This document shows positions 31,432 to 48,677 of a stretch of 64,000 nt of DNA, piece by piece. Source of the DNA: a virus; the IMG/VR virus record IMGVR_UViG_3300025874_000005, positions 100,119-164,118 of that record; one strand, written 5' to 3'. Each line of letters starts with the position of its first letter. Positions within the stretch are counted from its first letter, which is position 1. The notes beneath the pieces were generated by a model, which worked only from the letters and a program-made list of their open reading frames with translations, had not been told where the DNA came from and did no database searches. The translations under genes were made by a program, and so were the position numbers.

Positions 31432-33972
31432 ATGGGTATAATATTAAGACAGAACAAAGGTTCCGAGTTAACATTCGCAGAAGTAGATGGCAATTTTCAG
31501 TCACTCTACTACTCTAGTTCTCTGTCTGGTACTGACCTTCAATTCTTTTTTGCAAGTAGTAGTGTAACACATAGTATAGATTTACAAAATGTTCCGGGAT
31601 TTACAGGAGTTACAATTGAAAGTGGAAGTACTTTAATAAGTAATGGTGTTCAAACTCTAAATTTTTTAGGAGATGGTATAGCTAGTATAACAAACTCCCC
31701 AACAACAAACCAAGTTGATATTAATATCCAAGGAGGTGGTGGTGGTGGTGGTTCTGGAACAGGAATATTCCAATTATTAGGAGCTACAGATATATATTTT
31801 GCAACCTCTTCATTACAAGTTACAGCCAGTACTTACCAAGAATCTGAGTATACTACTATAGGCGTTACACAAAACCCAAACAATGATGGCACTGGAGGTA
31901 ATGTAGCTAAGTATGGAATGATGTTTAGCCAATCAGTATGGCATTATACGGATAATGTAGGTTACCCAACATCAAAAGCATGGCAGACAGATTTAGAAGG
32001 ATCGGTATTTAATAACTATGACCAAAATACAGATACAGCAGAAATTTTAAGGTTTATTGCAACACAATTAAGTGCATCATCCCCAGATACTTCCCCAAAT
32101 GCTCGTTATTATTCTGGTACTTCTGAAACAATTGCTTCAAATGGAACTGGTGGGGTTACGGGTTATGTACCCAATTCTACAACCGACCCCATTTTATTAT
32201 ATTTGCAAGGAAAAGGATGGGCTATAGCAGGACAAAGTGTATTTCAAGGAATTACCCCAATTTATAATAATTCAGGCTATAATATAAAATATACATCAGT
32301 TGCAGCTGGTTCGACTACATGCCCCTCATCATCTTATGATCCTTCTTTCCAATTATTCAATTTAGGATTAGTAAGTTCTTCATTTACAACATCAGGTTCT
32401 TTAAGAAGAATTTTTGCTGATAACTCTGCAAAAACCCAAACAGTAGTAGATGAACAACAATATACTTTAGTAAAAACCCCACCACCTTTTAATACAACAT
32501 CAGGTCAAACTATTGGGGCAATACCTACAGTAGGAGGATTAGATATAAAATATCAAGATGGTAAATTTGCTACGATTTTCCAAAATAATTTATATAATGG
32601 GGGTATTTCTTTCACAACAAAAGAGGCTACAGGTTGGTATAGATTATCTTCATCAATAGGAGTACAATCAGGTTCTTCTAATTATACTACTTTTTATGAT
32701 CAAGATACTGAAATATTTTGGTCGGAAGTACAAACTAGTGATTTTTCTCAAACAGTAGGTTTTAATACTAGACAAAGTTCATCTTTATCAGCAACCTCAA
32801 GATCACTTTCAGGAGCTCCTTTATTATTAACATCAAATTTTAAAGAAGGATCTCATCTTACAGGATATTTCAATCCTTTATTTTCAGCACAACCTACATT
32901 TGCTTCAATTACAGAAACAGATTCTTTAGTAACCCCCTCTAACCCAACAGGTGGAACTAGAAATGGAAGTACAAATGGGGGTACTGTTCAAACTTCTAAT
33001 TTTATATATTCTAGTGGGGGTGTTGTTAGAACTGTAGGAACTATACCAAGTCAAGGAGATGTTGTTTATTTGACAGCAAGTTTAGCATTTAATGCAGGAT
33101 CAGGAGGGGCTGATAATATCAACCAAACCGGATTTGGCACAACAACATTTATAACAACAACAAAAGGTAGAGAATTTGGAGGATCGTTAAATACCGTATT
33201 TACTAATACTTATGCTTATTTTGACCCAGGGGCATATGGACAAAATGTACTGTCAGGTTCTATGGGTTACTACGGTAGAGCTCAAGGATATGATGGTGGC
33301 ACCTTAACTGGGGCTTCAAGTAATACAATATTTACAGAACAATTTTCAGGAGAAGATTATAGAATAGTTATTGATGATGATTTATTAACAGGATCCTATG
33401 CTAGTGGAACAAAATTGGCAACGGGTGTGTATGCAGAGTATGTTCAACAACCCTTAGAATTACAAATAAAACCAGGATATTTAGTAACCCCAGGAGGAAC
33501 ATATGGTTATTGGACTCCTGCAAACGCTGGTGCAAATACTTATCAATATTATTCAAGAGCATTTCAAAGAGATTTAACAACAGGAGCAAGTGATGTAACA
33601 GCTAGTTTTGGTGCAGCTTTAAATACGTGGGATAGCACAGCTAATGGGGTATCAGTAGCATTTTTGTTTTCAGGTTCGGGTGCACAAGCTTATACAAATC
33701 CAAGAATATTTGATCCTGCAACAACCGTAGGAGATGCTTTACAAATAGGTATAACAAATAATAATTTTACAAATCCATTTAGTGATCCAATTGATTTATA
33801 TGCTTGTAAAACAGGTACAGTAAGAGGAAGTGGAGCTGGTACAAGTTATGAATTTCCTCTTTTAAATGGAAATGGTATGACTTTAGATCAGTTAACACAG
33901 GACTTTATAGTTATAATAAGATATAAAGGAGACCCAGTTCCAGTAGAAGATATAGACATAACGATTACGTAA
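31432..33972 (+). CDS. Ser/Thr/Gly-rich virion structural protein
   Basis: N-terminal LRQNKGSELTFAEVDGNF (RxxKGSxLTxxExDxNF-type motif seen in phage fibre/appendage proteins); poly-Gly linker; beta-rich body. Confidence 0.6.
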   Translation: MGIILRQNKGSELTFAEVDGNFQSLYYSSSLSGTDLQFFFASSSVTHSIDLQNVPGFTGVTIESGSTLISNGVQTLNFLGDGIASITNSPTTNQVDINIQGGGGGGGSGTGIFQLLGATDIYFATSSLQVTASTYQESEYTTIGVTQNPNNDGTGGNVAKYGMMFSQSVWHYTDNVGYPTSKAWQTDLEGSVFNNYDQNTDTAEILRFIATQLSASSPDTSPNARYYSGTSETIASNGTGGVTGYVPNSTTDPILLYLQGKGWAIAGQSVFQGITPIYNNSGYNIKYTSVAAGSTTCPSSSYDPSFQLFNLGLVSSSFTTSGSLRRIFADNSAKTQTVVDEQQYTLVKTPPPFNTTSGQTIGAIPTVGGLDIKYQDGKFATIFQNNLYNGGISFTTKEATGWYRLSSSIGVQSGSSNYTTFYDQDTEIFWSEVQTSDFSQTVGFNTRQSSSLSATSRSLSGAPLLLTSNFKEGSHLTGYFNPLFSAQPTFASITETDSLVTPSNPTGGTRNGSTNGGTVQTSNFIYSSGGVVRTVGTIPSQGDVVYLTASLAFNAGSGGADNINQTGFGTTTFITTTKGREFGGSLNTVFTNTYAYFDPGAYGQNVLSGSMGYYGRAQGYDGGTLTGASSNTIFTEQFSGEDYRIVIDDDLLTGSYASGTKLATGVYAEYVQQPLELQIKPGYLVTPGGTYGYWTPANAGANTYQYYSRAFQRDLTTGASDVTASFGAALNTWDSTANGVSVAFLFSGSGAQAYTNPRIFDPATTVGDALQIGITNNNFTNPFSDPIDLYACKTGTVRGSGAGTSYEFPLLNGNGMTLDQLTQDFIVIIRYKGDPVPVEDIDITIT

Positions 33973-33989
33973 AAGAATAAAGATATAGA

Positions 33990-36900
33990 ATGGCATTAGA
34001 TAAAATAAAAAAGTCGAATAGATTACTCCAGAGTAAGAGATATACAATGGAGCAGAGTACTGATGCTCAGGAGGCATTCACAAGAACTCTCGACATTAAT
34101 GCTGGTGATGTTTATATAAGAGAAAATTTTGTTCCCTTAAATAATTTACCATATTCTGGTAGTGGACAGAACCAAGATACAATAGAATCAGGTTCAGCTT
34201 TAACAGCTGTTGATATTGTAAAGTTTCACTTCCAACATCAATTAACACCATCATCGGTTGTTAATGGTAGTAAAACAGAAGTATTTTTCTTTATATCAAA
34301 ATCAGCACATGATCCTACAATAGCTGTTACTCCTCAAATTATACAGGATGGACAACAAACAAACTTTTTATCACCAAAATATTCAGATGCTTCCTTAACA
34401 TTTAAAAATACTGAGGATAATGTACCCGCAGGAAACGGTACACCTGGATATAATGTTACTGTTAGAGTAAATGGTACTGAACAAGATTCAGCTTTTTATC
34501 AATTTGATTATAAAACAGGTGTAATACAATTCGTAGATAATTCAGTCTCACCATCAACCGGAGATACTGTCGTTTTATCAGCATACCAATATGTAGGTCC
34601 TACATTAGCAGATGGTGGTGTTGGTGGAGGTAATGCTTTTCCATTTTCAGGATCAGCACAAATAACAGGATCAGTTGGGGGTGTTCCAGGTGGATTCGCA
34701 GTAACCGGTAGTAGTACATTTGATGTAAGTGGTACCGGAGATGATTTTTCTATAATATCAGCTCCAATACAAGATAGACCTGAATTATTAACATATAACC
34801 CTTCAACAGGTCTTATAGGATATGTAAATGCAACTAGTGGTACTAGTGGATTTTCAGGTTCAAGTGGTACAGCAGGCCAATCTGGTACTTCAGGTACAAG
34901 TGGTTCATCAGGTTCAACAGGAACAAATGGTACTTCAGGAGAATCTGGTACTTCAGGAACATCAGGTGAAAGTGCTACTTCAGGTACATCAGGTACATCA
35001 GGTACTTCAGGTACATCAGGTGAAAACGGAACAAACGGTACTTCAGGTTTAAGTGCAACAAGTGGTTCTTCAGGAACAAGTGGTACTTCAGGTGAATCAG
35101 GCACAGCAGGAACAAGCGGAGAAAGTGCAACATCAGGCTCAAGTGGTACTTCAGGTACTTCAGGTGAAAGCGGCACAGTAGGTACATCAGGAGAAAGTGC
35201 AACATCAGGCTCAAGTGGTACATCAGGTACTTCAGGAGCAGATGGAACAAGAGGTACTTCAGGTTCAAGTGGTACAAGTGGTACTTCAGGTACATCAGGT
35301 ACTTCAGGAGCAGATGGGACAAGAGGTACGTCAGGAGAAAGTGCAACATCCGGCTCATCAGGTACTAGTGGTACTTCAGGTGAATCAGGCACAGCAGGAA
35401 CAAGCGGAGAAAGTGCAACATCAGGCTCAAGTGGTACTTCAGGTACTTCAGGAGCAGATGGAACACGCGGAACTTCAGGAGAAAGCGCTACTTCAGGATC
35501 AACAGGTACTTCAGGTACATCAGGTTCAAACGGAGTAGCAGGAGAAAGTGGCTTAAGTGCTACAAGTGGTACATCAGGAACCAGTGGTGCAGATGGTACA
35601 TCAGGTACTTCAGGTTTAAGTGCAACAAGTGGTTCTTCAGGAACAAGTGGTACTTCAGGAGCAGATGGAACAAGAGGTACATCAGGAGAAAGTGCAACAT
35701 CAGGCTCAAGTGGTACTTCAGGTACTTCAGGAGAATCTGGTACTGCGGGAACATCAGGTGAAAGTAGTACAAGTGGTTCTTCAGGTACTAGTGGTACCTC
35801 AGGAGCAGATGGAACATCAGGTACATCAGGTAAAAGTGCAACAAGTGGTTCTACAGGAACAAATGGAACTTCAGGTTCAAATGGTGTTGCCGGAGAAAGT
35901 GGCTTAAGTGCTACAAGTGGTACATCAGGAACCAGTGGTGCAGATGGCACCTCAGGAACTTCAGGTGTAAGTGGTACAGCAGGTTCATCAGGAACTTCAG
36001 GTACTTCAGGAGCAGATGGAACAAGAGGTACTTCAGGAGAAAGTGCAACATCCGGCTCATCAGGTACTAGTGGTACTTCAGGTGAATCAGGCACAGCAGG
36101 AACATCAGGAGAAAGTGAAACTTCAGGATCTTCAGGAACAAGCGGTACTTCAGGAGCAGATGGAACATCAGGTACATCAGGTTTAAGTGCAACAAGTGGT
36201 TCAACAGGAACAAATGGTACAAGTGGCTCAAACGGAGTAGCAGGTGAAAGTGGCTTAAGTGCAACTTCAGGTACTTCAGGAACAAGTGGAGTTGATGGTA
36301 CATCTGGAACAAACGGAAAAAGCGGAACAAGTGGTTCATCAGGAACAAGTGGTACTTCAGGAGCAGATGGAACAAACGGAACTTCAGGTTTAAGTGCAAC
36401 TTCAGGATCATCAGGTACTTCAGGTACTTCAGGTACTTCAGGAGAATCTGGTACTGCAGGAACATCAGGTGAAAGTGCTACAAGTGGTTCAGCAGGTACA
36501 TCAGGTACTTCAGGTGAAAGTGGAACAAATGGCACATCAGGAGAAAGTGCAACCTCAGGTTCAACAGGAACAAATGGTACATCAGGTTCAAATGGGGTAG
36601 CAGGAGAAAGTGGCCTAAGTGCAACTTCAGGAACCTCAGGAACTTCAGGTGTAGATGGCACCTCAGGAACTTCAGGTGTAAGTGGTACAGGAGGTTCATC
36701 AGGTACATCAGGTACTTCAGGAGCAGATGGAACAAATGGTACAAGTGGTTTAAGTTCAACTTCAGGTTCAACAGGAACAAGCGGTACTTCAGGTGAATCA
36801 GGTACTGCAGGAACATCAGGAGAAAGCGAAACTTCAGGATCTTCAGGAACAAGCGGTACCTCAGGAGCAGATGGAACATCAGGTACATCAGGTTTAAGTG

Positions 36901-39900
36901 CAACTTCAGGTTCAACAGGTACTTCAGGTACATCAGGTTCAAATGGGGTAGCAGGTGAAAGTGGCTTAAGTGCAACTTCAGGAACTTCAGGAACTTCAGG
37001 AGCAGATGGAACTTCAGGTACAAGTGGCGAAAGTGGCGAAAGTGGCTCATCAGGTACTAGTGGTACTTCAGGAGCAGATGGAACATCAGGAACAAGTGGT
37101 CTAAGTGCAACTTCAGGTTCATCAGGTACATCAGGTACTTCAGGAGCAGAGGGAACAAAAGGAACTTCAGGAAAAAGCGGAAAAAGCGGAACTAGTGGTT
37201 CAGCAGGTACTTCAGGTACTTCAGGTGAAACAGGAACAAATGGTACATCAGGTTTAAGTGCAACAAGCGGTTCAACAGGAACAAATGGTACAAGTGGCTC
37301 AAATGGAGTAGCAGGGGAAAGCGGTTTAAGCGCAACTTCAGGTACTTCAGGAACTTCAGGTGTAGATGGTACATCAGGTACAAGTGGTGTAAGCGGAACT
37401 GGAGGTTCATCAGGAACTTCAGGTACTTCAGGAGCAGATGGAACAGCAGGAACATCAGGTGAAAGTAGTACAAGTGGTTCTTCAGGTACTAGTGGTACTT
37501 CAGGTGAATCAGGTACTGCAGGAACATCAGGAGAAAGTAAAACAAGTGGTTCATCAGGTACTTCAGGTACTTCAGGTGAAACTGGAACAAATGGTACATC
37601 AGGTAAAAGTGCAACATCAGGATCAACGGGTACTAATGGTACTTCAGGTTCAAACGGAGTAGCAGGTGAAAGTGGCTTAAGTGCAACTTCAGGTACTTCA
37701 GGAACTTCAGGAGTAGATGGAACTTCAGGTACAAGTGGCATTAGTGGTACAAGTGGCTCATCAGGTACATCAGGTACATCAGGAGCAGATGGAACAAACG
37801 GAACTTCAGGTTTAAGTGCAACTTCAGGATCAGGAGGTACTTCAGGTACTTCAGGAGCAGATGGAACAAACGGAACTTCAGGAAAAAGTGCAACTTCAGG
37901 ATCATCAGGTACATCAGGTACTTCAGGTAAAACAGGAACAAACGGAACTTCAGGTAAATCAAATACTTCAGGTACATCAGGTACTTCAGGTTCCTCAGGT
38001 ACTAATGGTACAAGAGGTTTATCAGGTAAATCAAATACTTCAGGTACATCAGGTACTTCAGGTTCGACAGGTACTTCAGGTACATCAGGTGAATCAGGCA
38101 CAGCAGGAACAAGCGGAGAAAGTGCAACTTCAGGTTCGACAGGTACTTCAGGTACATCAGGTTCAAATGGAGTAGCAGGTGAAAGTGGCTTAAGTGCAAC
38201 TTCAGGAACTTCAGGAACTTCAGGTGTAGATGGCACCTCAGGAACTTCAGGTGTAAGTGCAACAAGCGGTTCATCAGGTACTTCAGGTACAAGTGGTGCT
38301 GATGGTACAGCAGGAACATCAGGTGAAAGTAATTTAAGTGGTACATCAGGTACATCTGGTACATCAGGTACATCAGGTTCAAGAGGTACTTCAGGTACTT
38401 CAGGCGAAAATGGTACATCAGGTACAAGTGGTGTAAGTGCAACAAGTGGTTCAGCAGGTACATCAGGTACTTCAGGTGAAACCGGAACAAATGGTACGTC
38501 AGGTTTAAGTGGTAAAAGTGGTACTTCAGGTTCAGCAGGTACTTCAGGTACATCAGGTAAATCAGGTAAAAACGGCACAGCAGGAACAAGTGGTAAAAGT
38601 TCAACTTCAGGATCAGCAGGTACAAATGGTACTTCAGGTAAAAATGGAACAGCAGGAACAAGTGGTAAATCAGGAACTTCAGGTTCAACAGGAACAAATG
38701 GTACATCAGGTTCAAATGGGGTAGCAGGAGAAAGTGGCCTAAGTGCAACTTCAGGAACCTCAGGAACTTCAGGTGTAGATGGTACTTCAGGTACAAGTGG
38801 TGAAAGTGGAGGAAGTGGTTCATCCGGTACTAGCGGTACTTCAGGAACAGACGGAACAAATGGAACAAAAGGTTCAAGTGGAAATAGTGCAACATCAGGT
38901 TCATCAGGTACATCAGGTACATCAGGTGAAAGTGGAACTTCAGGAACCTCAGGTTTAAGTTCAACTTCAGGAAGTTCAGGTACTTCAGGTACAAGTGGTA
39001 AATCAGGAAAAGATGGTACTGCTGGTACATCAGGTAAATCAAATACTTCAGGAAGTTCAGGTACTTCAGGTACATCAGGTACATCAGGTGAAAGTGGAAC
39101 TTCAGGAACCTCAGGTTTAAGTTCAACTTCAGGATCAAGTGGTACTTCAGGTACAAGTGGTAAAAATGGAACAGCAGGAACAAGTGGTAAATCAAATACA
39201 TCAGGAACAACAGGTACTTCAGGTACAAGTGGTTCAAACGGAGTGGCAGGAGAAAGTGGCCTAAGTGCAACTTCAGGAACCTCAGGAACTTCAGGTGTAG
39301 ATGGAACTTCAGGCACATCAGGTTTAAGTGGTACTGCAGGTTCAAGTGGTACAGCAGGTACTTCAGGTAAATCAGGAAAAGATGGCACTTCAGGTACATC
39401 AGGCAAATCAGGTACTTCAGGATCAGCAGGTACAAATGGTACTTCAGGTAAAAGTTCAACTTCAGGTACCTCAGGTTTAAGTTCAACTTCAGGAAGTTCA
39501 GGAACTTCAGGTACTTCAGGAGCAGATGGAACAGCAGGAACCTCAGGTGAAAGTAATTTAAGTGGTACATCAGGTACATCAGGTACATCAGGTACATCAG
39601 GATCAAGGGGTACTTCAGGTACTTCCGGTAAAAATGGAACAGCAGGAACCTCAGGTTTAAGTTCAACTTCAGGATCAGCAGGTACAGCAGGTACTTCCGG
39701 TAAAAGTGGAACAGCAGGTACAAGCGGTAAATCAAATACATCAGGTACATCAGGTACTTCAGGATCATCAGGTACTAATGGTACAAGAGGTTTATCAGGT
39801 CAATCAAATACCTCAGGTACATCAGGTTCTTCGGGTTCAACAGGTACAGCAGGTACTTCCGGTAAAAGTGGAGTAGCAGGTACAAGTGGTAAAAGTTCAA

Positions 39901-42900
39901 CTTCAGGAACAACAGGTACTTCGGGTACAAGTGGCTCAAACGGAGTAGCAGGTGAAAGTGGTTTAAGCGCAACTTCAGGTACTTCAGGAACGAGTGGAGT
40001 TGATGGTACATCAGGTACAAGTGGTGTAAGTGCAACAAGTGGTTCAGCAGGTACATCAGGTACTTCAGGTAAATCAGGAGCAGATGGAACAGCAGGTACT
40101 TCAGGTAAAAGTGCAACTTCAGGATCAGGAGGTACATCAGGTACAAGCGGTAAAAACGGAACAGCAGGAACCTCAGGTAAATCTAATACTTCAGGAAGTT
40201 CAGGTACAAATGGTACTTCAGGTAAAAATGGAACAGCAGGAACCTCAGGTAAATCAAATACTTCAGGAACATCAGGTACTTCGGGATCATCAGGTACTAA
40301 CGGTACAAGAGGCCTATCAGGTCAATCAAATACCTCAGGTACATCAGGTTCTTCAGGTTCAACGGGTACGGCAGGTACAAGCGGTAAATCAGGAGCAGAT
40401 GGAACAGCAGGAACTTCAGGTGTATCAAATACTTCAGGTTCTACAGGTACTTCAGGTAAGTCAGGAGCAGATGGAACCGCAGGAACCTCAGGTAAATCTA
40501 ATACTTCAGGATCAGGAGGTACTTCAGGTACTTCAGGTAAATCAGGAGCAGATGGAACAGCAGGAACTTCAGGTAAATCAAATACTTCAGGTTCTACAGG
40601 TACAAGTGGTACTTCCGGTAAAAGTGGAACAGCAGGTACAAGCGGTAAATCAAATACTTCAGGTACATCAGGTACTTCAGGATCATCAGGTACTAATGGT
40701 ACAAGAGGCCTATCAGGTCAATCAAATACCTCAGGTACATCAGGTTCTTCGGGTTCAACAGGTACAGCAGGTACAAGCGGTAAATCAGGAAAAGATGGTA
40801 CTGCGGGTACTTCAGGTGTATCAAATACTTCAGGTTCTACAGGTACTTCAGGTAAATCAGGAGCAGATGGAACAGCAGGAACATCAGGTAAAAGTTCAAC
40901 TTCAGGATCAGCAGGTACTTCAGGTAAATCAGGAGCAGATGGAACAGCAGGAACCTCAGGTAAATCAAATACATCAGGATCATCAGGTACATCAGGATCA
41001 TCAGGTATAGATGGGGGTAGTGGTGAAAGTGGCGAAAGCGCTACAAGTGGATCATCAGGTACTTCAGGTACTTCAGGTAAAAATGGTACTGCTGGAACTT
41101 CAGGTGTATCAAATACTTCAGGAAGTTCAGGTACAAATGGTACTTCAGGTAAAAATGGAACAGCAGGAACAAGTGGTAAATCAAACACTTCAGGTACATC
41201 AGGTACTTCGGGTTCCTCGGGTACTAATGGTACAAGAGGCCTATCAGGTCAATCAAATACCTCAGGTACCTCAGGTACATCAGGTTCTTCAGGTTCAACA
41301 GGTACGGCAGGTACAAGCGGTAAATCAGGAAAAGATGGAACAGCCGGAACATCAGGTAAAAGTGCAACTTCAGGATCAGGAGGTACTTCAGGTACTTCAG
41401 GTAAGTCAGGAGCAGATGGAACAGCAGGTACTTCAGGTAAAAGTGCAACTTCAGGATCAGGAGGTACATCAGGTACTTCAGGTAAAAATGGAACAGCAGG
41501 AACAAGTGGTAAATCAAACACTTCAGGAACATCCGGTACTTCAGGTTCCTCAGGTACTAACGGTACAAGAGGCCTATCAGGTCAATCAAATACCTCAGGT
41601 ACCTCAGGTACATCAGGTTCTTCAGGTTCAACGGGTACAGCAGGTACTTCAGGTAAATCAGGAGCAGATGGAACAGCAGGAACATCAGGTAAATCTAATA
41701 CTTCAGGTTCTACAGGTACTTCAGGTAAGTCAGGAGCAGATGGAACAGCAGGTACTTCAGGTGTATCAAATACTTCAGGATCAGCAGGTACTTCAGGTAA
41801 ATCAGGAGCAGATGGAACAGCAGGTACTTCAGGTGTATCAAATACTTCAGGATCAGCAGGTACTTCAGGTAAATCAGGAGCAGATGGAACAGCAGGAACC
41901 TCAGGTAAATCAAACACTTCAGGTTCTACAGGTACTTCAGGTACTTCAGGTAAATCAGGAGCAGATGGAACAGCAGGAACTTCAGGTAAATCAAATACTT
42001 CAGGTTCAACGGGTACGGCAGGTACAAGCGGTAAATCAGGAGCAGATGGAACAGCAGGAACATCAGGTAAATCTAATACTTCAGGATCAGCAGGTACTTC
42101 AGGTAAATCAGGAGCAGATGGAACAGCAGGAACCTCAGGTAAAAGTGCAACTTCAGGATCAGGAGGTACTTCAGGTACAAGCGGTAAAAACGGAACAGCA
42201 GGTACGTCAGGTACTTCAGGATCATCAGGTACAACTGGTTCAAGTGGTGTAGGTGGTGCTGGTGGTGTTTCAGGTGGATCAGGTACATCTGGTACATCAG
42301 GAAAAGATGGTACTTCAGGATCATCAGGTACATCAGGTACATCAGGTACTTCAGGTACTTCAGGTAAAAATGGTACAAGTGGTACATCAGGTATAAACGG
42401 TGCCTCAGGAGCGAGTGGAACACCTTTAGAGGTTTGGGTTGATGATAATACATCATTAGATTATGCTGCAAATATTAAGATAAATGGAGCAAATTATACA
42501 CAAGCATCACCATTTACATTAAATACAGATTTTTCATTAGGTATTACAAACCCATTCCAAATAGGTAAAAACCAACCAGACTTAACTAATACAAGTGCAA
42601 TTAATGGTACAGGATTTATTGAATATCTAATCCCAGGTGCAGATGGTTTTACTGGGGAATTTTATACTGGTGGGGGGAATGCAGGTGGAGTAACTCAATT
42701 TGAATTAGTAGCTTTAAACAGTGCTGGTAATTGGGATGAAGCAGATGCTGATTTATCATCAACAAAGAATTTATTGGGTGTTGCATATAAGGCAACCGGA
42801 GTATTGGTTGATGTTATATTAAGAGGTATGATTAAATCTAAGACTTTTAGTTTTACTGTTGGAGCACCAGTTTATGTTTCAAGAACACCTGGGGGTTTCA

Positions 42901-43013
42901 CACAATCATTAACAGGATTTGTTACTGGTGATTATGTAAGATTAGTAGGACATTCCATAGAAACTAATGTTTTATATTTCAACCCAGAACCAACATGGAT
43001 CTTAATTTCATAA
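33990..43013 (+). CDS. Giant Gly-Thr-Ser triplet-repeat (collagen-like/PPII-like) fibre protein, 3007 aa
   Basis: About 280-aa globular N-terminus, about 2530 aa of period-3 repeats, about 195-aa globular C-terminus; synonymous codon variation across repeats indicates selection on the protein. Confidence 0.85.
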   Translation: MALDKIKKSNRLLQSKRYTMEQSTDAQEAFTRTLDINAGDVYIRENFVPLNNLPYSGSGQNQDTIESGSALTAVDIVKFHFQHQLTPSSVVNGSKTEVFFFISKSAHDPTIAVTPQIIQDGQQTNFLSPKYSDASLTFKNTEDNVPAGNGTPGYNVTVRVNGTEQDSAFYQFDYKTGVIQFVDNSVSPSTGDTVVLSAYQYVGPTLADGGVGGGNAFPFSGSAQITGSVGGVPGGFAVTGSSTFDVSGTGDDFSIISAPIQDRPELLTYNPSTGLIGYVNATSGTSGFSGSSGTAGQSGTSGTSGSSGSTGTNGTSGESGTSGTSGESATSGTSGTSGTSGTSGENGTNGTSGLSATSGSSGTSGTSGESGTAGTSGESATSGSSGTSGTSGESGTVGTSGESATSGSSGTSGTSGADGTRGTSGSSGTSGTSGTSGTSGADGTRGTSGESATSGSSGTSGTSGESGTAGTSGESATSGSSGTSGTSGADGTRGTSGESATSGSTGTSGTSGSNGVAGESGLSATSGTSGTSGADGTSGTSGLSATSGSSGTSGTSGADGTRGTSGESATSGSSGTSGTSGESGTAGTSGESSTSGSSGTSGTSGADGTSGTSGKSATSGSTGTNGTSGSNGVAGESGLSATSGTSGTSGADGTSGTSGVSGTAGSSGTSGTSGADGTRGTSGESATSGSSGTSGTSGESGTAGTSGESETSGSSGTSGTSGADGTSGTSGLSATSGSTGTNGTSGSNGVAGESGLSATSGTSGTSGVDGTSGTNGKSGTSGSSGTSGTSGADGTNGTSGLSATSGSSGTSGTSGTSGESGTAGTSGESATSGSAGTSGTSGESGTNGTSGESATSGSTGTNGTSGSNGVAGESGLSATSGTSGTSGVDGTSGTSGVSGTGGSSGTSGTSGADGTNGTSGLSSTSGSTGTSGTSGESGTAGTSGESETSGSSGTSGTSGADGTSGTSGLSATSGSTGTSGTSGSNGVAGESGLSATSGTSGTSGADGTSGTSGESGESGSSGTSGTSGADGTSGTSGLSATSGSSGTSGTSGAEGTKGTSGKSGKSGTSGSAGTSGTSGETGTNGTSGLSATSGSTGTNGTSGSNGVAGESGLSATSGTSGTSGVDGTSGTSGVSGTGGSSGTSGTSGADGTAGTSGESSTSGSSGTSGTSGESGTAGTSGESKTSGSSGTSGTSGETGTNGTSGKSATSGSTGTNGTSGSNGVAGESGLSATSGTSGTSGVDGTSGTSGISGTSGSSGTSGTSGADGTNGTSGLSATSGSGGTSGTSGADGTNGTSGKSATSGSSGTSGTSGKTGTNGTSGKSNTSGTSGTSGSSGTNGTRGLSGKSNTSGTSGTSGSTGTSGTSGESGTAGTSGESATSGSTGTSGTSGSNGVAGESGLSATSGTSGTSGVDGTSGTSGVSATSGSSGTSGTSGADGTAGTSGESNLSGTSGTSGTSGTSGSRGTSGTSGENGTSGTSGVSATSGSAGTSGTSGETGTNGTSGLSGKSGTSGSAGTSGTSGKSGKNGTAGTSGKSSTSGSAGTNGTSGKNGTAGTSGKSGTSGSTGTNGTSGSNGVAGESGLSATSGTSGTSGVDGTSGTSGESGGSGSSGTSGTSGTDGTNGTKGSSGNSATSGSSGTSGTSGESGTSGTSGLSSTSGSSGTSGTSGKSGKDGTAGTSGKSNTSGSSGTSGTSGTSGESGTSGTSGLSSTSGSSGTSGTSGKNGTAGTSGKSNTSGTTGTSGTSGSNGVAGESGLSATSGTSGTSGVDGTSGTSGLSGTAGSSGTAGTSGKSGKDGTSGTSGKSGTSGSAGTNGTSGKSSTSGTSGLSSTSGSSGTSGTSGADGTAGTSGESNLSGTSGTSGTSGTSGSRGTSGTSGKNGTAGTSGLSSTSGSAGTAGTSGKSGTAGTSGKSNTSGTSGTSGSSGTNGTRGLSGQSNTSGTSGSSGSTGTAGTSGKSGVAGTSGKSSTSGTTGTSGTSGSNGVAGESGLSATSGTSGTSGVDGTSGTSGVSATSGSAGTSGTSGKSGADGTAGTSGKSATSGSGGTSGTSGKNGTAGTSGKSNTSGSSGTNGTSGKNGTAGTSGKSNTSGTSGTSGSSGTNGTRGLSGQSNTSGTSGSSGSTGTAGTSGKSGADGTAGTSGVSNTSGSTGTSGKSGADGTAGTSGKSNTSGSGGTSGTSGKSGADGTAGTSGKSNTSGSTGTSGTSGKSGTAGTSGKSNTSGTSGTSGSSGTNGTRGLSGQSNTSGTSGSSGSTGTAGTSGKSGKDGTAGTSGVSNTSGSTGTSGKSGADGTAGTSGKSSTSGSAGTSGKSGADGTAGTSGKSNTSGSSGTSGSSGIDGGSGESGESATSGSSGTSGTSGKNGTAGTSGVSNTSGSSGTNGTSGKNGTAGTSGKSNTSGTSGTSGSSGTNGTRGLSGQSNTSGTSGTSGSSGSTGTAGTSGKSGKDGTAGTSGKSATSGSGGTSGTSGKSGADGTAGTSGKSATSGSGGTSGTSGKNGTAGTSGKSNTSGTSGTSGSSGTNGTRGLSGQSNTSGTSGTSGSSGSTGTAGTSGKSGADGTAGTSGKSNTSGSTGTSGKSGADGTAGTSGVSNTSGSAGTSGKSGADGTAGTSGVSNTSGSAGTSGKSGADGTAGTSGKSNTSGSTGTSGTSGKSGADGTAGTSGKSNTSGSTGTAGTSGKSGADGTAGTSGKSNTSGSAGTSGKSGADGTAGTSGKSATSGSGGTSGTSGKNGTAGTSGTSGSSGTTGSSGVGGAGGVSGGSGTSGTSGKDGTSGSSGTSGTSGTSGTSGKNGTSGTSGINGASGASGTPLEVWVDDNTSLDYAANIKINGANYTQASPFTLNTDFSLGITNPFQIGKNQPDLTNTSAINGTGFIEYLIPGADGFTGEFYTGGGNAGGVTQFELVALNSAGNWDEADADLSSTKNLLGVAYKATGVLVDVILRGMIKSKTFSFTVGAPVYVSRTPGGFTQSLTGFVTGDYVRLVGHSIETNVLYFNPEPTWILIS
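34833..42423 (+). repeat. 7.6-kb degenerate 9-bp coding tandem repeat (GGT ACT/ACA TCA) with a 351-360-bp higher-order unit
   Basis: ggtacttca/ggtacatca/ggaacaagt units throughout; SNGVAGESGLSATS marker recurs 11 times. Confidence 0.95.
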
Positions 43014-43017
43014 AAAT

Positions 43018-43746
43018 ATGCCTCAAGTAAATTTAGCCCCATATACTACAAACAGCTCTAACTATGCTTTAGGTAATATTAGAAGAACGGGTGTAGGTTC
43101 CTGGACTTCTATTAGAACAGGCACACCAGTTTCAGGAAATGTGTCTCAAACAGGTAATTCTACTAAAAGTATTGGTGTTGCTTGGACTGGAGGTAGTAGA
43201 GGATCATATAGCTTATATAGAAATTATATATGGTATGATGTAACAGCCTACCAAAGCGTTTTAATAACTTCAGCAGAATTAACTTGTCCTACAACGGCAG
43301 GGGTAACTGCTTTAGCACTTCCAGTAATAGCAGTAGATAGTAGTACTGCTTTTAGTAATAATTCAAACACAACATTAAGTTTAAGTCAATTTCTTTCTAC
43401 TTCTTTTGTAGCTTATAGTAATTCTACAAATTGGGCACAAACCACAGGTTTCCAACAAATAACCCTAAATAGTTCAGCAATAGTAGCAATACAAAATGGA
43501 AATAATTTTGGAGTTGGTATTATAGACCATAATTATGATTTTCAAAATGTTCAACCCTCAGGTATTGGATTTGATGGTTTTTATTTAGGTGATATGTCAA
43601 ATGCAACACAAAGATCAAGATGGACATTAACTTTAAATTACATAGCAGGATGGTCAGCCGGAGACATGAATGGAGTGGCAAGTAGTGACATGGGGGAAGT
43701 TAATGGTGTAGCTATAGCAGACATAAGTGAAATTAATGGTATTTAA
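43018..43746 (+). CDS. Ser/Thr-rich beta-sandwich-like structural protein
   Basis: 242 aa; YRNYIWYDVT...ITSAEL pattern; C-terminal 11-residue NGV/NGI repeats. Confidence 0.55.
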   Translation: MPQVNLAPYTTNSSNYALGNIRRTGVGSWTSIRTGTPVSGNVSQTGNSTKSIGVAWTGGSRGSYSLYRNYIWYDVTAYQSVLITSAELTCPTTAGVTALALPVIAVDSSTAFSNNSNTTLSLSQFLSTSFVAYSNSTNWAQTTGFQQITLNSSAIVAIQNGNNFGVGIIDHNYDFQNVQPSGIGFDGFYLGDMSNATQRSRWTLTLNYIAGWSAGDMNGVASSDMGEVNGVAIADISEINGI

Positions 43747-43752
43747 CAATAG

Positions 43753-43783
43753 TTTGGATATGTAATTAATATTTATTATATTG
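43753..43783 (+). promoter_or_regulatory. Putative Bacteroidota-type promoter overlapping a late-motif variant
   Basis: TTTG 43753-43756, 20-nt spacer, TATATTG 43777-43783; ATATTTATTA at 43769-43778. Confidence 0.5.
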
Positions 43784-43808
43784 TCAAGTAGTTTTAAAAA
43801 ATAGTTAT

Positions 43809-46520
43809 ATGAAGAAAATCTTATTTATAGCGCCTCATCTTTCAACAGGAGGACTCCCACAATATTTAACTAAAAAAATTGAACTTATTAAAGATGAGTT
43901 TGAAGTATATGTAGTAGAATGGGTAGATTGTACTGGGGGGAAATTAGTTGTAACCAAAAATAAAATATTAGAATTAGTAGATAATAATAAATTTTTTACA
44001 CTTGAAGAAGATAAAAGTGAATTATTTAATATTATAGATAGGATTACACCAGACATTATTCATTTAGAAGAAATTCCTGAGTATTTTATGGATGATGATA
44101 TAGCTCGAAAGTTATATGATGTAAATAGAAGTTATTTTTTAGTAGAAACATCACATGATTCTTCTATGGATACAGACACTAAAATATTCTCACCAGATAA
44201 GTTTATGTTTGTGTCAAACTGGCAAATAGAACAGTATAAAAACATAGATATACCTAAAATACTGGTAGAATACCCAATTGAATATATCCCCAGACCTAAT
44301 AGAGAAAATGCGTTAAAACGCTTAAATCTCGACCCATCAAAAAAACATATATTACATATAGGTTTATTTACTTCTAGAAAAAACCAAAAAGAATTTTTTG
44401 AATATGCTGAAGCATTACCTGAATATGAATTTCATAGTGTAGGAAACCAGGCAGATAATTTTAAATGGTATTGGGAACCTTTAATGGAAAATAAACCAAC
44501 TAATTTAACTTGGTGGGGTGAACGAACTGATGTAAATAATTTCTATCAATCAATGGATTTATTTTTATTTACATCTAGAGGAAGTAAAAATGATAAAGAA
44601 ACAATGCCTCTAGTAATACGTGAAGCTTTATCTTATCAAATACCACAACTATTATATAATTTAGAAGTTTATCAAAATTATTTTGAAGACTATAATACAA
44701 TTAATTATTTAGATTTTGCAGATTTTAATAAGAACGTTAAATTAATTAAAAATCAACTAAATACCCCTTCTATAATACCCCCAGATGTTGAAGAAAAAGA
44801 AGCATATGTGATTTGTACTTACCCAAATACACAAGCAGTAGTAGATACCACAATAGAATGTATTAAATCATTAAGAAAAAACAGTAATAGAAAAATAATT
44901 ATATCCGCACATTGTCCTGTTCCAAAGGAATTACAGGGTATGGTTGATTATGTTTTTTATGAAAAAAATAATTTATTAACAAAACATACATTCTACTCAG
45001 GTTATTGGATGTATCATGATCAATATGATACCCATGTAAATTTAAAAGGTGAAGATAATGATAGATATCACGGCCCAGCATGTTATACATCCTTCTATAA
45101 CCCAGCAACATTTGCTAAAGAATTAGGGATTGAAAAATTATACTATATTAACTTTGATTATATTCTTAAAGATAGTAGTTATATAGATTATATATCTAAA
45201 AAATTAAATACTCATGATACTTTCTTTGGTGAATATGAAGCACAAGAAGGTAAATGTTATTATACATATTTCTTTGCAGTCAAACCAGATGCAATTTTAA
45301 GACATTGTGATTTTATAGAAACTGAAAATCAATATAATAGTCTTATGGATAAGTATGAGGCTGAATCTAATGGTATTGAAAATTTATATTATCATATATT
45401 TAAAAATAATATAAATAACTATATTGAACCAAAAGAAAAATTTGAATCTGATGCTGAAAAGTATTTTGAATTTGAGGATTATTCAATGATTGAATATTAT
45501 ACTATACTTCCTACAGATGTAGATAATCATTTTTGTCCTTGGATAACTATTTCTAATGCTAAAGAAAGTAAGAATATCTACTATACAGTAGAAAAAAATG
45601 GTGAAGTTATCATTGATAGATTGCTAGAAGTTAGGGGAAAATTTTCATTTTGGGATTTAGTAAAATATGATTTAGATGATAACATCATAGTTACATTTGA
45701 TGTAAAAGATACTAATACTGGAGAAAGTGTAAAATATCATAAATTTAATTTAAATAAAGATTATTTTTTAAATACAATGCCTAATAATGGTATGTTTAAT
45801 TGGAAAGGAGATAGAAGTAGATACAACCCAAAAATTAAACTAATGCATTTAGTTACAGAACCAGATGTAAATGAAAAAGAAATAAGATCAGTAAAAAATA
45901 TTAAAGAATTTTGTGAATCAACAGGTATAGAATACGAACAAAGAATAAATAAAATATGGACTGACTTACCCCCAATTGATACTTGTAATAGACCTGAAGA
46001 TGTTCAAGACAAACCAGGATATTATAAACTAGCACCAGGACATTATGGGTGTTATAAAGCACACACAAATGCTATTATGTCTGAAAATAATAAAGATTAT
46101 GATTATATTTTAATCTTTGAAGGGGATGTTATTGTTGATTCCCCATTTGATGAATTAAAACAAGCTTTAAATCGTTTTAGTAATCTATCTAAATCTAATA
46201 ATCAGGACATTATAGGATTTGGCAACCCTTACCAAAATCGTAATTTAAATGGGCCTAAAATTGAAGACATATACACTAATATATCTCCATTTATACCTGC
46301 ACAATCTTATTTAATAAATAAAAATAAATTACAACTTATTCAAGATAAAATTAAAAATACAAAATGGGATGCTTTTGATATGTGGGTATGTAATGTAGCT
46401 AAATTAAAAGTAGGAACAGCAGAAAAAATTTATACTAAACATCTACCAGGATTTAGTATAATTGAGCAAGAAATAAAAACAACAGACGAAAATAGTCCTT
46501 TAATATACGCTGGAGAATGA
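43809..46520 (+). CDS. Multidomain glycosyltransferase (N-terminal GT-B/GT4-like, central unknown domain, C-terminal GT-A/GT25-like)
   Basis: HLSTGGLPQY, RKNQ, DLFLFTS...ETMPLVIREA (GT4 ExxxxxxxE); C-terminal GHYGCYKAH, ILIFEGD, AQSYLIN, AFD. Confidence 0.8.
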   Translation: MKKILFIAPHLSTGGLPQYLTKKIELIKDEFEVYVVEWVDCTGGKLVVTKNKILELVDNNKFFTLEEDKSELFNIIDRITPDIIHLEEIPEYFMDDDIARKLYDVNRSYFLVETSHDSSMDTDTKIFSPDKFMFVSNWQIEQYKNIDIPKILVEYPIEYIPRPNRENALKRLNLDPSKKHILHIGLFTSRKNQKEFFEYAEALPEYEFHSVGNQADNFKWYWEPLMENKPTNLTWWGERTDVNNFYQSMDLFLFTSRGSKNDKETMPLVIREALSYQIPQLLYNLEVYQNYFEDYNTINYLDFADFNKNVKLIKNQLNTPSIIPPDVEEKEAYVICTYPNTQAVVDTTIECIKSLRKNSNRKIIISAHCPVPKELQGMVDYVFYEKNNLLTKHTFYSGYWMYHDQYDTHVNLKGEDNDRYHGPACYTSFYNPATFAKELGIEKLYYINFDYILKDSSYIDYISKKLNTHDTFFGEYEAQEGKCYYTYFFAVKPDAILRHCDFIETENQYNSLMDKYEAESNGIENLYYHIFKNNINNYIEPKEKFESDAEKYFEFEDYSMIEYYTILPTDVDNHFCPWITISNAKESKNIYYTVEKNGEVIIDRLLEVRGKFSFWDLVKYDLDDNIIVTFDVKDTNTGESVKYHKFNLNKDYFLNTMPNNGMFNWKGDRSRYNPKIKLMHLVTEPDVNEKEIRSVKNIKEFCESTGIEYEQRINKIWTDLPPIDTCNRPEDVQDKPGYYKLAPGHYGCYKAHTNAIMSENNKDYDYILIFEGDVIVDSPFDELKQALNRFSNLSKSNNQDIIGFGNPYQNRNLNGPKIEDIYTNISPFIPAQSYLINKNKLQLIQDKIKNTKWDAFDMWVCNVAKLKVGTAEKIYTKHLPGFSIIEQEIKTTDENSPLIYAGE

Positions 46521-47473
46521 AAATATGCCATGTAGACCCAGCTTGTGGGTTAGATATCCCACCAAAAAATTGGGGAGCAATTGAAAAAATTATTTGGGAA
46601 TTTATAAATAATCAAAAATTACTAGGCCATGAATCTACCTACAAATTATCTTCTCATATTAATCTTGGAGAATTTGATATTGTACATTGTCATGTAGCTA
46701 ATTTAGCAATTGGTTTACAAGAAAGAAATATACCCTATATATTCCAACTTCATGACCACCATGCATTTCATTATGGTAAAGACTCACATATATTTAAAGA
46801 AAATTTAAAAGCTATAGAAGGATCACTTTTAACCTTACTACCAGGTAAATTTTTAGTTGATTATTTTAACCACCCCAAAGCACAATATTTTTCTCATGGG
46901 GTTAATGTTAATGAATTTTATCCTTCACCTAACCCAAATCCTATAAAAATAACAAACCCCAAACTGTTGATGGTTGCAGCTAATGGTTTAGCTGGTGATA
47001 AGGGTTATGATAGAAAAGGATTTAAATATGGATTAGCTTTAGCAGCAAAACATAATTTAGATATAACCATAGCAGGTCCAAACTTTAATAAAGAATTTTT
47101 TAATCAACATTTAGAAATGTTTAATTATCCAAAATTAAACTTAGTCTTTGATACACCCAACAATAAATTATTAGAATTATATCACAAACATGATATTTTT
47201 ATTCACCCTACAATGCTAGAAGCAGGCCACCCAAATTTAACTATGATTGAAGCCGCAGCTGCTGGTTTACCTATAATAGCAAATTGGGAATATGAAACAG
47301 ATTTTCATGGTGCTTGGAGATCACCACGTGATATATTTCACATGGAAGTAGGGTTAAAAGATATAATAAATAACTATGACTATTATAAAGTTAGAGCAGT
47401 AGCTACTGGAAAAGAATTAAGCTGGAAAAACAGAACAAAAGATTTATTAGAAATTTATAAAAATTTTATATAA
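46517..47473 (+). CDS. GT-B glycosyltransferase (GT4-like)
   Basis: IPPKNWGAIE, HGVNVNEF, RKG, DIFIHPT..EAGHPNLTMIEAAAAGLPII. Confidence 0.85.
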   Translation: MKICHVDPACGLDIPPKNWGAIEKIIWEFINNQKLLGHESTYKLSSHINLGEFDIVHCHVANLAIGLQERNIPYIFQLHDHHAFHYGKDSHIFKENLKAIEGSLLTLLPGKFLVDYFNHPKAQYFSHGVNVNEFYPSPNPNPIKITNPKLLMVAANGLAGDKGYDRKGFKYGLALAAKHNLDITIAGPNFNKEFFNQHLEMFNYPKLNLVFDTPNNKLLELYHKHDIFIHPTMLEAGHPNLTMIEAAAAGLPIIANWEYETDFHGAWRSPRDIFHMEVGLKDIINNYDYYKVRAVATGKELSWKNRTKDLLEIYKNFI

Positions 47474-47474
47474 T

Positions 47475-48677
47475 ATGAAAGAAATTTTAATCCAAGAATA
47501 TAATAATTTATCTAAATTACTTATTAAACCAAAACCTCAATCTAACTTTTACCACATTAACTTTATTAATGGGGCTAAATTAGAAATTACAGGTAAAATA
47601 GATAAAAAATATAACATCCAATTTTACGACCAAAATACATTAGAATTACTTTTTGAAAGTGAAATTACAAATAATATGTGGACTAAATTTAACAAAACAT
47701 ATTATATAAATTATAATATTAAAGTAATAGATTTAGAAAATAATACAGTTGTTTTTGAACATAAATTTAATGCAAAAAACAAAAGAGTTTATATTCATTT
47801 TGCCTCAAAAGCCTTAGGGGATACTATAGCATGGTTTCCATTTGCTGAAGAGTTTAGAAAAAAGCACCAATGTGAATTAATTGTTTCTACTTTCCATAAC
47901 AGTATGTTTAAGGAAAACTATCCAAACATTAAATTTATAACTCCTGGAGAAGAACAATTTGACTTATATGCTATGTATGAAGTTGGGTGGCATTATAATG
48001 AAGATGAAAAAATAGATTATAATAAAAATATATCAGATTTTAGAAAACATGGTTTACAAAAATGTAGTGGTGAAATTTTAGGAGTTAACCAATCAGAAAT
48101 TAAACCAAAACTAACATTCAAAAATACAGGATCTACAATAGAAGGAAAATATGTCGTTATAGCACCCCATGGGTCGGCACATGCTAAGTATTGGAATTAT
48201 AAAGGAGGGTGGCAAACAATAATAGATTATTTAAATAATAAAGGTTATAAAGTAGTAATGATAACACAAGAATTATTAGGAGACAAATGGCATGATTCTA
48301 AATTAGGAGGAACTTTAACGGGGGTTATTGATAAAACTGGAGATTACCCTTTAAGTGAAAGAGCTAATGATATGTTAAATGCTAAAGCTTTTATTGGTAT
48401 TGGAAGTGGGTTAAGTTGGTTAGCTTGGGCTTTAAAAACCCCTGTAGTAATGATATCAGGATTTAGTGAAGCTTATAGTGAATTTGAAGATTGTGAAAGA
48501 ATATCATCACCTAAAAATAAATGTTCTGGATGTTTTAATAGAGTAAGATTAGATGCAGGAGATTGGGAATGGTGTCCTGATCATAAGGATACAGATAGAA
48601 TGTTTGAATGTACTAAATCAATAACACCAGATACAGTAATTGCTGCTATAAACCATCAATTAGAAAAATCTCTTTGA
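47475..48677 (+). CDS. Autotransporter O-heptosyltransferase (Aah/TibC)-like protein glycosyltransferase
   Basis: ALGDTIAWFP, KYWN..GGW, FIGIGSGLSWLAWA...VVMISGFS, C-x2-C-x13-C-x11-C metal-finger motif ending FECTKSITP. Confidence 0.8.
   Translation: MKEILIQEYNNLSKLLIKPKPQSNFYHINFINGAKLEITGKIDKKYNIQFYDQNTLELLFESEITNNMWTKFNKTYYINYNIKVIDLENNTVVFEHKFNAKNKRVYIHFASKALGDTIAWFPFAEEFRKKHQCELIVSTFHNSMFKENYPNIKFITPGEEQFDLYAMYEVGWHYNEDEKIDYNKNISDFRKHGLQKCSGEILGVNQSEIKPKLTFKNTGSTIEGKYVVIAPHGSAHAKYWNYKGGWQTIIDYLNNKGYKVVMITQELLGDKWHDSKLGGTLTGVIDKTGDYPLSERANDMLNAKAFIGIGSGLSWLAWALKTPVVMISGFSEAYSEFEDCERISSPKNKCSGCFNRVRLDAGDWEWCPDHKDTDRMFECTKSITPDTVIAAINHQLEKSL

Follow-up and report, generated by a model that had tools for sequence, protein, structure and literature searches.

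The final 64 kb of a single-contig marine phage genome (IMG/VR record IMGVR_UViG_3300025874_000005, positions 100,119 to 164,118; 164,118 bp in total, rated 100% complete by CheckV) encode a giant fiber protein with a collagen-like stalk, followed one small gene later by a cluster of three glycosyltransferase (GT) genes. This stretch of 64,000 nucleotides is called the window below, and coordinates are those of the window unless stated otherwise. The arrangement is read here as a phage-encoded O-glycosylation system for a virion protein, the main substrate of which would be the phage's own giant fiber; we put the probability of this reading at roughly 0.6. It is carried by the sequence architecture of the fiber, by an enzyme family with intact catalytic residues, by synteny and by co-occurrence in relatives. 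The fiber as substrate, the identity of the sugar, the triple-helical form of the stalk and the role of the fiber are what we infer from these observations.

33990-43013, + strand: giant fiber gene, an open frame of 3007 aa (~264 kDa)
34839-42425, + strand: collagen-like stalk, aa 284-2812, 843 Gly-X-Y triplets

The first-pass annotation of the window had described a 3007-aa protein with about 2530 residues of triplets, roughly half of them Ser or Thr, and these figures hold: the tract spans 2529 residues, of which 49.4% are Ser or Thr. A single register runs through the whole tract with zero shifts. Position 1 is Gly in 758 of the 843 triplets (90%), the other 85 being Ala (42), Asn (29), Ser (11), Glu (2) and Lys (1); Thr fills position X in 493 triplets and Ser fills position Y in 608. 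The Collagen family of Pfam (PF01391) matches 59 stalk segments above its cut-off, 49 of them singly (27.4-35.3 bits) and 10 only when summed with their neighbors. Judged by this strict pattern, the tract is a collagen-like Gly-X-Y stalk, a better name than the mucin-like label that it had first been given, or than a mere Ser/Thr-rich tract. If triple-helical, the stalk would have a predicted length of ~720 nm (0.286 nm rise per residue).

The regular spacing suggests a triple helix. A different conformation, either a flexible, disordered Ser/Thr-rich tether or bundles of the polyglycine-II type, is unlikely, although the composition speaks for it: the stalk has one Pro in 2529 residues, none of the KGE and KGD clamps (nor any RGE or RGD; charged residues make up 7.6%), and 85 of 843 first positions that are not Gly. 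A disordered linker, however, needs no Gly at every third residue, let alone in a register that never shifts, and this register is kept in relatives whose X and Y residues have diverged. The changes at position 1, though 29 are to Asn, are mostly to Ala or Ser (53 of 85) and typically fall at every eighth triplet without making turns, and Collagen matches occur throughout the stalk. The spacing of eight triplets equals the 72-nt period of the underlying DNA repeats, which are degenerate (65-83% matches; periods of 72, 81, 351 and 396 nt).

An artifact of assembly, by collapse or duplication, was considered for the stalk and is unlikely because the DNA repeats have diverged to this extent; the architecture is, moreover, common to relatives. 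The GC content rises to 0.42-0.46 in the stalk region because of the codon set GGT/GGA/TCA/ACA. An antisense open reading frame (ORF) of 1632 aa (34508-39406, - strand) was tried as a gene and rejected as a by-product of the stop-free repeat composition, and several other ORFs within the fiber gene are by-products of the same kind. The charge of the stalk changes along its length, from 9-12 Glu and 0-2 Lys per 253 residues in the N-proximal third to 0-2 Glu and 13-15 Lys per 253 residues in the C-distal third. In a parallel homotrimer, the part next to the virion would be acidic and the part next to the tip basic. The 29 Asn in first positions stand in N-T-S or N-L-S at the spacing of the 24-residue repeat period, and both triplets are the N-x-S/T sequon of cytoplasmic N-glycosyltransferases.

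The GT genes overlap or abut one another inside the late neck-to-tail operon.

43809-46520, + strand: 903-aa multi-domain GT
46517-47473, + strand: 318-aa GT4-like glycosyltransferase, with a 4-nt overlap between its start and the end of the 903-aa gene at the stop codon
47475-48677, + strand: 400-aa homologue of the TibC/Aah-type Ser-O-heptosyltransferases (BAHT family), starting 1 nt past the previous gene

By its sequence, the 400-aa protein is a member of the BAHT family with intact catalytic residues, and a full-length homologue of the enzymes of the TibC/TibA and Aah/AIDA-I systems (TIGR04414; PDB 4RAP/4RB4; PMC4358343). It is predicted to be cytoplasmic and soluble, and no transmembrane segment is predicted in any of the three GT proteins. 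The NCBIfam model TIGR04414 ('autotransporter strand-loop-strand O-heptosyltransferase') gives 336 bits over residues 29-393 (cut-off 200; E 2.6e-100), and TibC itself (PDB 4RAP) matches over residues 21-396 (E 2.3e-63), which bears out the original Aah/TibC-like call. Models of lipopolysaccharide (LPS) heptosyltransferases reach at most 41 bits on the same protein, and Pfam returns Glyco_transf_9 together with a weak TibC_1st match. Automated pipelines already label such phage proteins 'Aah/TibC'.

The residues essential in TibC (Asp110, Thr226, Lys230, Arg286, Trp305 and Cys339/342/358/370), as listed in PMC4358343, were mapped through the 4RAP alignment. Asp110 corresponds to Asp116 and Lys230 to Lys238, Thr226 is replaced conservatively by Ser234, Arg286 and Trp305 are kept, and the four Cys of the iron finger become Cys350, 353, 367 and 379. 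Among 30 phage homologues, some of them only 41-43% identical, the Asp, the Lys, the Trp and the four Cys are invariant, and the equivalent of Arg286 is present in 28.

TibC modifies Ser, not Thr, at the sites N-S-G-G and T-S-A-A of TibA, and it also accepts synthetic peptides (PMC4358343). The stalk offers 446 candidate acceptor sites of the form [T/N/S]-S-[G/A] per chain; in relatives of the Ser type, the Y-position Ser is steady (0.49-0.75) and X changes between T, S, N, A and K. Because of the Ser preference of TibC, the number of these sites and the constancy of Y-position Ser, the BAHT-type enzyme is proposed to initiate on this residue. O-glycosylation of the Y-position Ser by the GTs is the most likely prediction for the cluster, and the phage probably sugar-coats its own fiber in this way. 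Of the Ser and Thr residues pointed out at first, Ser is the one on which TibC-type enzymes are known to act.

The three genes do contain four GT domains, in keeping with the initial count of at least four. In the 903-aa protein, residues 1-321 form a GT-B, GT4-like domain (Glycos_transf_1, 40.6 bits; cut-off 26.4) and residues ~700-903 a GT-A, GT25-like domain, which are separated by an alpha/beta domain and a beta-sandwich (aa ~330-700) in the AlphaFold2 (AF2) model (predicted local distance difference test, pLDDT, 79.8). The 318-aa protein, the gene of which always comes after the 903-aa GT and before the TibC-like gene in relatives, also passes the Glycos_transf_1 cut-off (33.1 bits against 26.4) and matches phrog_2170 glycosyltransferase. 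Thus, the GT4-like calls made earlier are upheld, and the GT25-like call is upheld as a fold but not by Pfam: Glyco_transf_25 (PF01755) scores 21.6 bits, under its cut-off of 24, and matches 8 of 18 homologues, none stronger than E 2e-4. An F-E-G-D motif is conserved in the consensus of the GT25-like domain.

Structural alignment of aa 1-321 retrieves HepE, PimA, BshA and WaaG at Z 20-22, with a root-mean-square deviation of ~3 A over 280-298 residues; the GT-B fold of the GT4-like domains tells nothing of the acceptor. The top PDB match of the 903-aa model in Foldseek is the human collagen galactosyltransferase COLGALT1 (E 6e-11, identity ~9%), LH3 follows with a weaker match (E 4e-8), and stand-alone viral GT25 proteins match the GT25-like domain at TMt 0.54-0.65. 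The likeness of the model to COLGALT1 is at the level of fold only, and may be merely that of a shared GT-A fold. When the PDB was searched with the 903-aa GT, by sequence and by profile, all matches were at chance level.

One alternative is that these enzymes remodel the LPS core, O-antigen or capsule of the host during infection, for example to block superinfection, as has been suggested for GTs near pelagimyophage tail fiber genes (PMC7029224). Within Pfam, the TibC-like protein is nearest to GT9, the family of the LPS heptosyltransferases, and in fold the GT4-like domains are similar to WaaG and to further enzymes of LPS or teichoic acid. Against this stand the score on the protein-heptosyltransferase equivalog, far above those on the LPS models (336 versus at most 41 bits), the retention of the BAHT-specific iron finger and of the match to the N-terminal barrel, the place of the cluster within a late operon of structural genes in a virulent-type myovirus, and the fact that its presence follows that of the collagen-like stalk. 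We regard host-surface remodeling as decidedly unlikely.

Further support for glycosylation of the fiber was provided by related contigs. A homologue at least 56% identical occurs on 216 IMG/VR contigs, and in the best 80 of these 216, which were examined for gene order, the 903-aa GT, the 318-aa GT, the TibC-like gene and the tail sheath follow one another in this order. Co-occurrence was counted at the 40 loci in which 1.5 kb or more of sequence lies upstream of the 903-aa homologue; they form 22 clusters at 90% TibC identity. A Gly-X-Y ORF lies upstream of the GT cluster in 37 of the 40 loci and in 21 of the 22 clusters. One exception (L004) is a truncated locus that retains the C-end of the fiber, another (L071) has 3.4 kb upstream with GT2-like and 2-oxoglutarate (2OG)-oxygenase-like genes, and the third (L063) is taken up below. 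Among the products of these upstream genes of L071 (211-2735), the GT2-like protein is joined by a 2OG-Fe(II) oxygenase that is similar to prolyl hydroxylases, which is suggestive in a collagen context.

A search with the N-terminal domain of the fiber revealed a sister clade (11 loci, 178 kb) with the same order from head-tail adaptor to sheath. Its homologue of the N-domain is a protein of 369-375 aa from which the stalk is absent, and no GT of the cluster was found within the 11-21 kb stretches examined at the 11 loci; Ser/Thr-rich neighbors with VSGS N-termini are retained. The closest cultured relative, Flavobacterium phage vB_FspM_immuto (160 kb; sheath identity 53%), was searched as a complete genome for TIGR04414 and Collagen, and neither was found. 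In three distant lineages, collagen-like genes stand near TibC-like genes again:

LR756501 (735-kb phage), TibC identity 41%: a GT4 gene and a GT4-TibC fusion, adjoined by a GTS/GSS collagen-like protein
L109, TibC identity 42%: the same order, namely fiber, GT907, GT315, TibC
L113, TibC identity 48%: two GSS/GTS ORFs within 10 kb

The co-occurrence of Gly-Thr-Ser repeat genes with such GTs, which the first-pass annotation had proposed to look for in relatives, is therefore found in nearly all clusters, in the joint absence from the sister clade and in the three distant re-associations (41-48% TibC identity). The pattern suggests a joint gain or loss of the fiber and the GT cluster.

The donor of the reaction might be supplied in part by two genes that lie upstream of the window. 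A 248-aa protein (genome 50519-51265) has rfaE domain I (HldE heptose-7-phosphate kinase) as its best match, which scores 125 bits against a cut-off of 345. For a second protein, of 134 aa (genome 68063-68467), the best match is rfaE domain II (HldE heptose-1-phosphate adenylyltransferase), with 102 bits against 181.5. These split HldE-like genes are separated by 17 kb from each other and by 30-50 kb from the GT cluster. A search of the complete immuto genome found neither of the two rfaE-like domains, and in the distant phage lineage of L112 one operon encodes a TibC fusion together with a PfkB kinase and a CTP_transf enzyme.

A kinase, a nucleotidyltransferase and GTs might also hypermodify the phage DNA with sugars. 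There is a precedent in the phage cytidylyltransferase and GT-B enzyme that make mono- and di-heptosyl-5hmC and are encoded in clusters near structural genes (bioRxiv 10.1101/2023.12.21.572611), and by fold the GT4-like domain also matches the T4 alpha-glucosyltransferase (Z 19.6). However, the 100%-complete genome contains no thymidylate-synthase-type hydroxymethylase and no C5 cytosine methyltransferase, so that no known sugar acceptor base would be made; a Tet/JBP search of the genome gave no match either, with the control genomes equally silent. In addition, the family of the TibC-like enzyme has protein substrates, and the HldE-like genes are distant from the GT cluster. DNA as the acceptor is therefore very improbable.

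A number of findings weigh against glycosylation of the fiber. The modification is a prediction from genes, for the phage as for its relatives, and BAHT enzymes naturally act on a beta-helix instead of a collagen-like chain. At the position that sets heptose stereoselectivity (Pro300 in TibC, Ser294 in AAH), the 400-aa protein has Gly, so the sugar may differ from the heptose of TibC and AAH, and the beta-hairpin thumb of TibC (Phe265/Val266), through which its ring-shaped dodecamer is built, aligns with indels. Both HldE-like proteins fall below their equivalog cut-offs, and the genome search found no GmhA-type (SIS_2) isomerase. The Fisher p of 7.6e-9 for the co-occurrence was obtained without phylogenetic correction, and most of the loci come from one phage clade, in which a single gain or loss may have occurred. 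One locus (L063) is rearranged, and its GT cluster adjoins a capsid-like gene. At three others, the cluster stands beside Ser-poor GYQ/GPQ collagen-like fibers (L037:3-2513, L060:1-4550 and L061:2-2107) with Gln in half of the Y positions and ~9% Pro; the GT25-like domain is absent from the clusters of L060 and L061. To these are added the following distant loci:

Mel-JY01, TibC identity 43%: Ser/Thr-rich structural protein, no Gly-X-Y
L106, TibC identity 51%: Ser/Thr-rich structural proteins, no Gly-X-Y
LR756504, TibC identity 33%: neither a Gly-X-Y nor a Ser/Thr-rich neighbor
L111 and L112, TibC identity 44% and 39%: neither a Gly-X-Y nor a Ser/Thr-rich neighbor

The Ser-poor fibers, and the Ser/Thr-rich proteins beside the TibC-like genes of Mel-JY01 and L106, imply that the stalk need not be the sole substrate. 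The link between fiber and GTs is strong, not universal, and mostly phylogenetically non-independent.

The same loci raise the possibility that the cluster acts mainly on other virion proteins, either Ser/Thr-rich baseplate or fiber proteins or the flanking 846-, 650- and 242-aa proteins. The stalk would then have no more than a minor part as a substrate, and the genes would be neighbors because they are expressed together late. The flanking proteins (31432-33972, 43018-43746 and 48699-50651) contain 22-24% Ser and Thr with abundant SGS/TGS turns, and this possibility would accommodate Mel-JY01 and L106 as well as the three loci with GYQ/GPQ fibers. In contrast, the TibA-like Ser sites of each stalk chain are far more numerous than those of any neighbor, and the sister clade, which has neither stalk nor GTs, still keeps its Ser/Thr-rich VSGS neighbors. 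Also, GTS/GSS collagen-like genes have come to lie beside a GT again in the three distant lineages. It is improbable that the other virion proteins are the main substrates.

Further TibC-like genes were seen in other settings. Two of the distant homologues, L108 and L110 (TibC identity 49% and 40%), have a bacterial chromosome context. On the bacterial contig L108 (1449-4376), two tandem TibC-like paralogues stand beside a type IV pilin-like gene (N_methyl/ComP_DUS), with no autotransporter, and the pair may serve pilin glycosylation. In the Microcystis phage Mel-JY01 (L083:4750-8430), a 1226-aa protein annotated 'methyltransferase FkbM' holds a GT4-like and a C-terminal TibC-like domain; its gene comes after the one for a Ser-rich structural protein, with a cytidylyltransferase-like gene ~3 kb downstream. 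Among 50,697 phage records, no carriers of the cassette from the clade of the window were found, except for Mel-JY01 and uncultured huge phages.

Glycosylation of the fiber would take place in the host cytoplasm, late in infection. The soluble TibC-type enzyme would place heptose, or a related nucleotide-activated sugar, on the Y-position Ser of the stalk in a T/N/S-Ser-Gly context, similar to the sites that TibC uses in TibA. The GT4-like enzymes and the GT25-like domain could then lengthen or diversify the glycan, and the split HldE-like heptose kinase and adenylyltransferase might provide part of the donor. The glycan sheath would probably stabilize and stiffen a triple helix that has neither Pro nor Lys-Gly-Asp/Glu salt bridges, giving a sugar-coated fiber of up to ~0.7 micrometre for host capture or adhesion. 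The interpretation first given to the window is partly supported by this analysis and the observation behind it is confirmed; the idea that the fiber is a polysaccharide-mimic bait for a glycan-foraging host found no support.

As the stalk lacks both known stabilizers, and a galactosylated peptide provides a precedent, the glycan may be what lets the stalk fold. We tentatively propose, as a possibility less likely to be right than wrong, that a Ser-linked heptose or heptose-based oligosaccharide is the triple-helix stabilizer of this proline-free collagen and that the G-T-S stalk would be unfolded without a BAHT-type enzyme. If so, the fiber would be a ~0.7-micrometre glyco-collagen rod for long-range host capture, with 2.5x the triplet count of human type I collagen, and the system would be widespread in aquatic phages, with 4213 TibC-like protein clusters in metagenomes. 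To our knowledge, stabilization of a triple helix by Ser-linked heptose has never been shown.

The precedent (PMC11923368) is Ac-(Gly-Pro-Thr)10-NH2, a peptide which is triple-helical only with galactosylated Thr; the same paper summarizes the glycosylated Thr of Riftia cuticle collagen (Mann 1996). In the Riftia collagen and in (Gly-Pro-Thr(Gal))10, the Y-position sugar replaces hydroxyproline as the stabilizer, which is the role proposed for the sugar on the Y-position Ser of the stalk. Unlike the stalk, these two chains have Pro in X and Thr in Y, and they are an animal protein and a synthetic peptide.

Among known systems, that of TibA is the nearest with respect to the enzyme, as in both cases its gene adjoins a repetitive Ser-rich surface fiber with many Ser-Gly/Ala sites. 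The differences are that the present enzyme is phage-encoded, that its neighbor is a collagen-like virion fiber instead of a beta-helical autotransporter passenger, and that two further GT genes accompany it, unlike TibC and Aah; these extra genes suggest an oligosaccharide rather than a single heptose. With no autotransporter gene in the window, the system would be TibCA-like in its working and not a member of TibCA.

Where the gene of a collagen-like surface filament adjoins that of its GT, the nearest precedent is BclA3 of Clostridioides difficile, an exosporium filament that is O-glycosylated in its triplets by the adjacently encoded SgtA, the initiating GT (PMC7157674). BclA of Bacillus anthracis is likewise a glycosylated collagen-like exosporium filament (Daubenspeck 2004, as cited in PMC11923368). 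BclA and BclA3 have Gly-Pro-Thr repeats in which Thr is the acceptor of a GT-A O-GlcNAc transferase, whereas the phage fiber has Gly-Thr-Ser without Pro, a likely Ser acceptor, a BAHT enzyme as the putative initiator, and a stalk many times longer. COLGALT1 (GT25) and LH3 share with the 903-aa GT a collagen-type client chain, which is a predicted one in the phage. However, the animal enzymes act on hydroxylysine in the endoplasmic reticulum, while the Lys of the phage stalk stands in X, not in Y, and no lysyl hydroxylase was seen in the window.

The first-pass annotation had drawn an analogy to the serine-rich repeat (SRR) adhesins, the GTs of which (GtfA/GtfB; SdgA/SdgB) are GT4-fold enzymes that O-glycosylate long Ser-rich repeats. 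The matches of the GT4-like domain include SdgB (Z 20.0) and GtfA (Z 19.2), a likeness of fold only that is common to dozens of unrelated GT4 enzymes. Unlike these systems, the phage has no SecA2/Y2 export and neither Ser-Asp nor SRR repeats. Mycobacteriophages reportedly encode GTs that modify their own virion proteins (Freeman et al. 2023). Their GT genes adjoin structural genes, and the targets are capsid and tail-tube proteins of actinophages. Those systems use other GT families and are not known to include a collagen-like substrate, a BAHT enzyme or HldE-type sugar-nucleotide genes.

The literature search found no paper on a BAHT-type enzyme with a collagen-like phage fiber, in a coverage that included few subscription journals. 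GTs in the host-recognition regions of marine and freshwater myophages are usually read as modifiers of LPS or DNA (PMC7029224, PMC10202952), and glycosylation of the fiber, if true, would change the reading of many of them. It would also extend self-glycosylation by phages from the capsids of actinophages to the fibers of abundant marine and freshwater myophages, and would provide the BAHT enzymes, known only from enterobacterial adhesins, with a second and much larger class of natural substrates. For collagen biophysics and materials, the stalk would be a natural test of whether glycosylation alone holds a proline-free collagen helix. Finally, a sugar-coated fiber several times the length of the tail would affect the adsorption kinetics, stickiness, aggregation and antigenicity of marine virions.

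The large ORFs of the window are all on the + strand, and those beside the fiber and the GTs include:

14589-16163, + strand: terminase
16182-18074, + strand: portal
23166-24806, + strand: major head protein
28684-29847, + strand: head-tail adaptor, the upstream edge of the neck-to-tail block (phrog_211, E 9e-11)
43018-43746, + strand: 242-aa protein between the fiber and the GT genes, 24% Ser and Thr
51002-53596, + strand: tail sheath, the downstream edge of the block (Pfam Phage_sheath_1 and 1C; phrog_23, E 4e-64)
53650-54138, + strand: tail tube

The placement of the block between neck and tail genes is thus as first described, with the head-tail adaptor upstream and the sheath and tube downstream. 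Three genes without assignment separate the adaptor from the 3007-aa ORF, and a 650-aa and an 81-aa ORF lie between the GT genes and the sheath. Pfam and PHROG scans gave no match for the neighboring 242-, 846-, 650-, 319- and 198-aa proteins. NCBIfam gave none for the 242-aa protein either, so its former label of 'structural' has no family match behind it; a protein at the same position is weakly conserved, in a few relatives only, and could conceivably be a chaperone or tip partner of the fiber.

The two ends of the fiber differ in their conservation.

33990-34838, + strand: fiber N-terminal domain, aa 1-283
42426-43010, + strand: fiber C-terminal domain, aa 2813-3007

The N-domain, probably the conserved, virion-attached end, shows 64-96% identity to its counterparts in close relatives and 43-45% to those of the stalk-less sister clade. 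It has no Pfam match, and its AF2 model, built on a 10-sequence alignment, is unusable (pLDDT 33.8). The C-domain is 42% identical to the C-end of the annotated tail fiber protein of immuto and has a weak Phage_cement_2 match (E 0.0023); by these similarities, it is probably a distal, receptor-binding or trimerizing tip. An IMG/VR search with the C-domain returned one weak locus. In relatives, the tips after the stalk fall into several unrelated classes, a C-terminal module of ~100 aa is conserved, and the stalk differs in length among those that share the N-domain and a Gly-X-Y stalk. A conserved N-end, a stalk of variable length and a swappable C-tip would correspond to the usual layout of a receptor-binding fiber. 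In one relative (L090:9992-19975), the fiber ORF reaches the end of the locus without a stop, so that its 3328 aa, 3054 of them in Gly-X-Y sequence, are minimum values.

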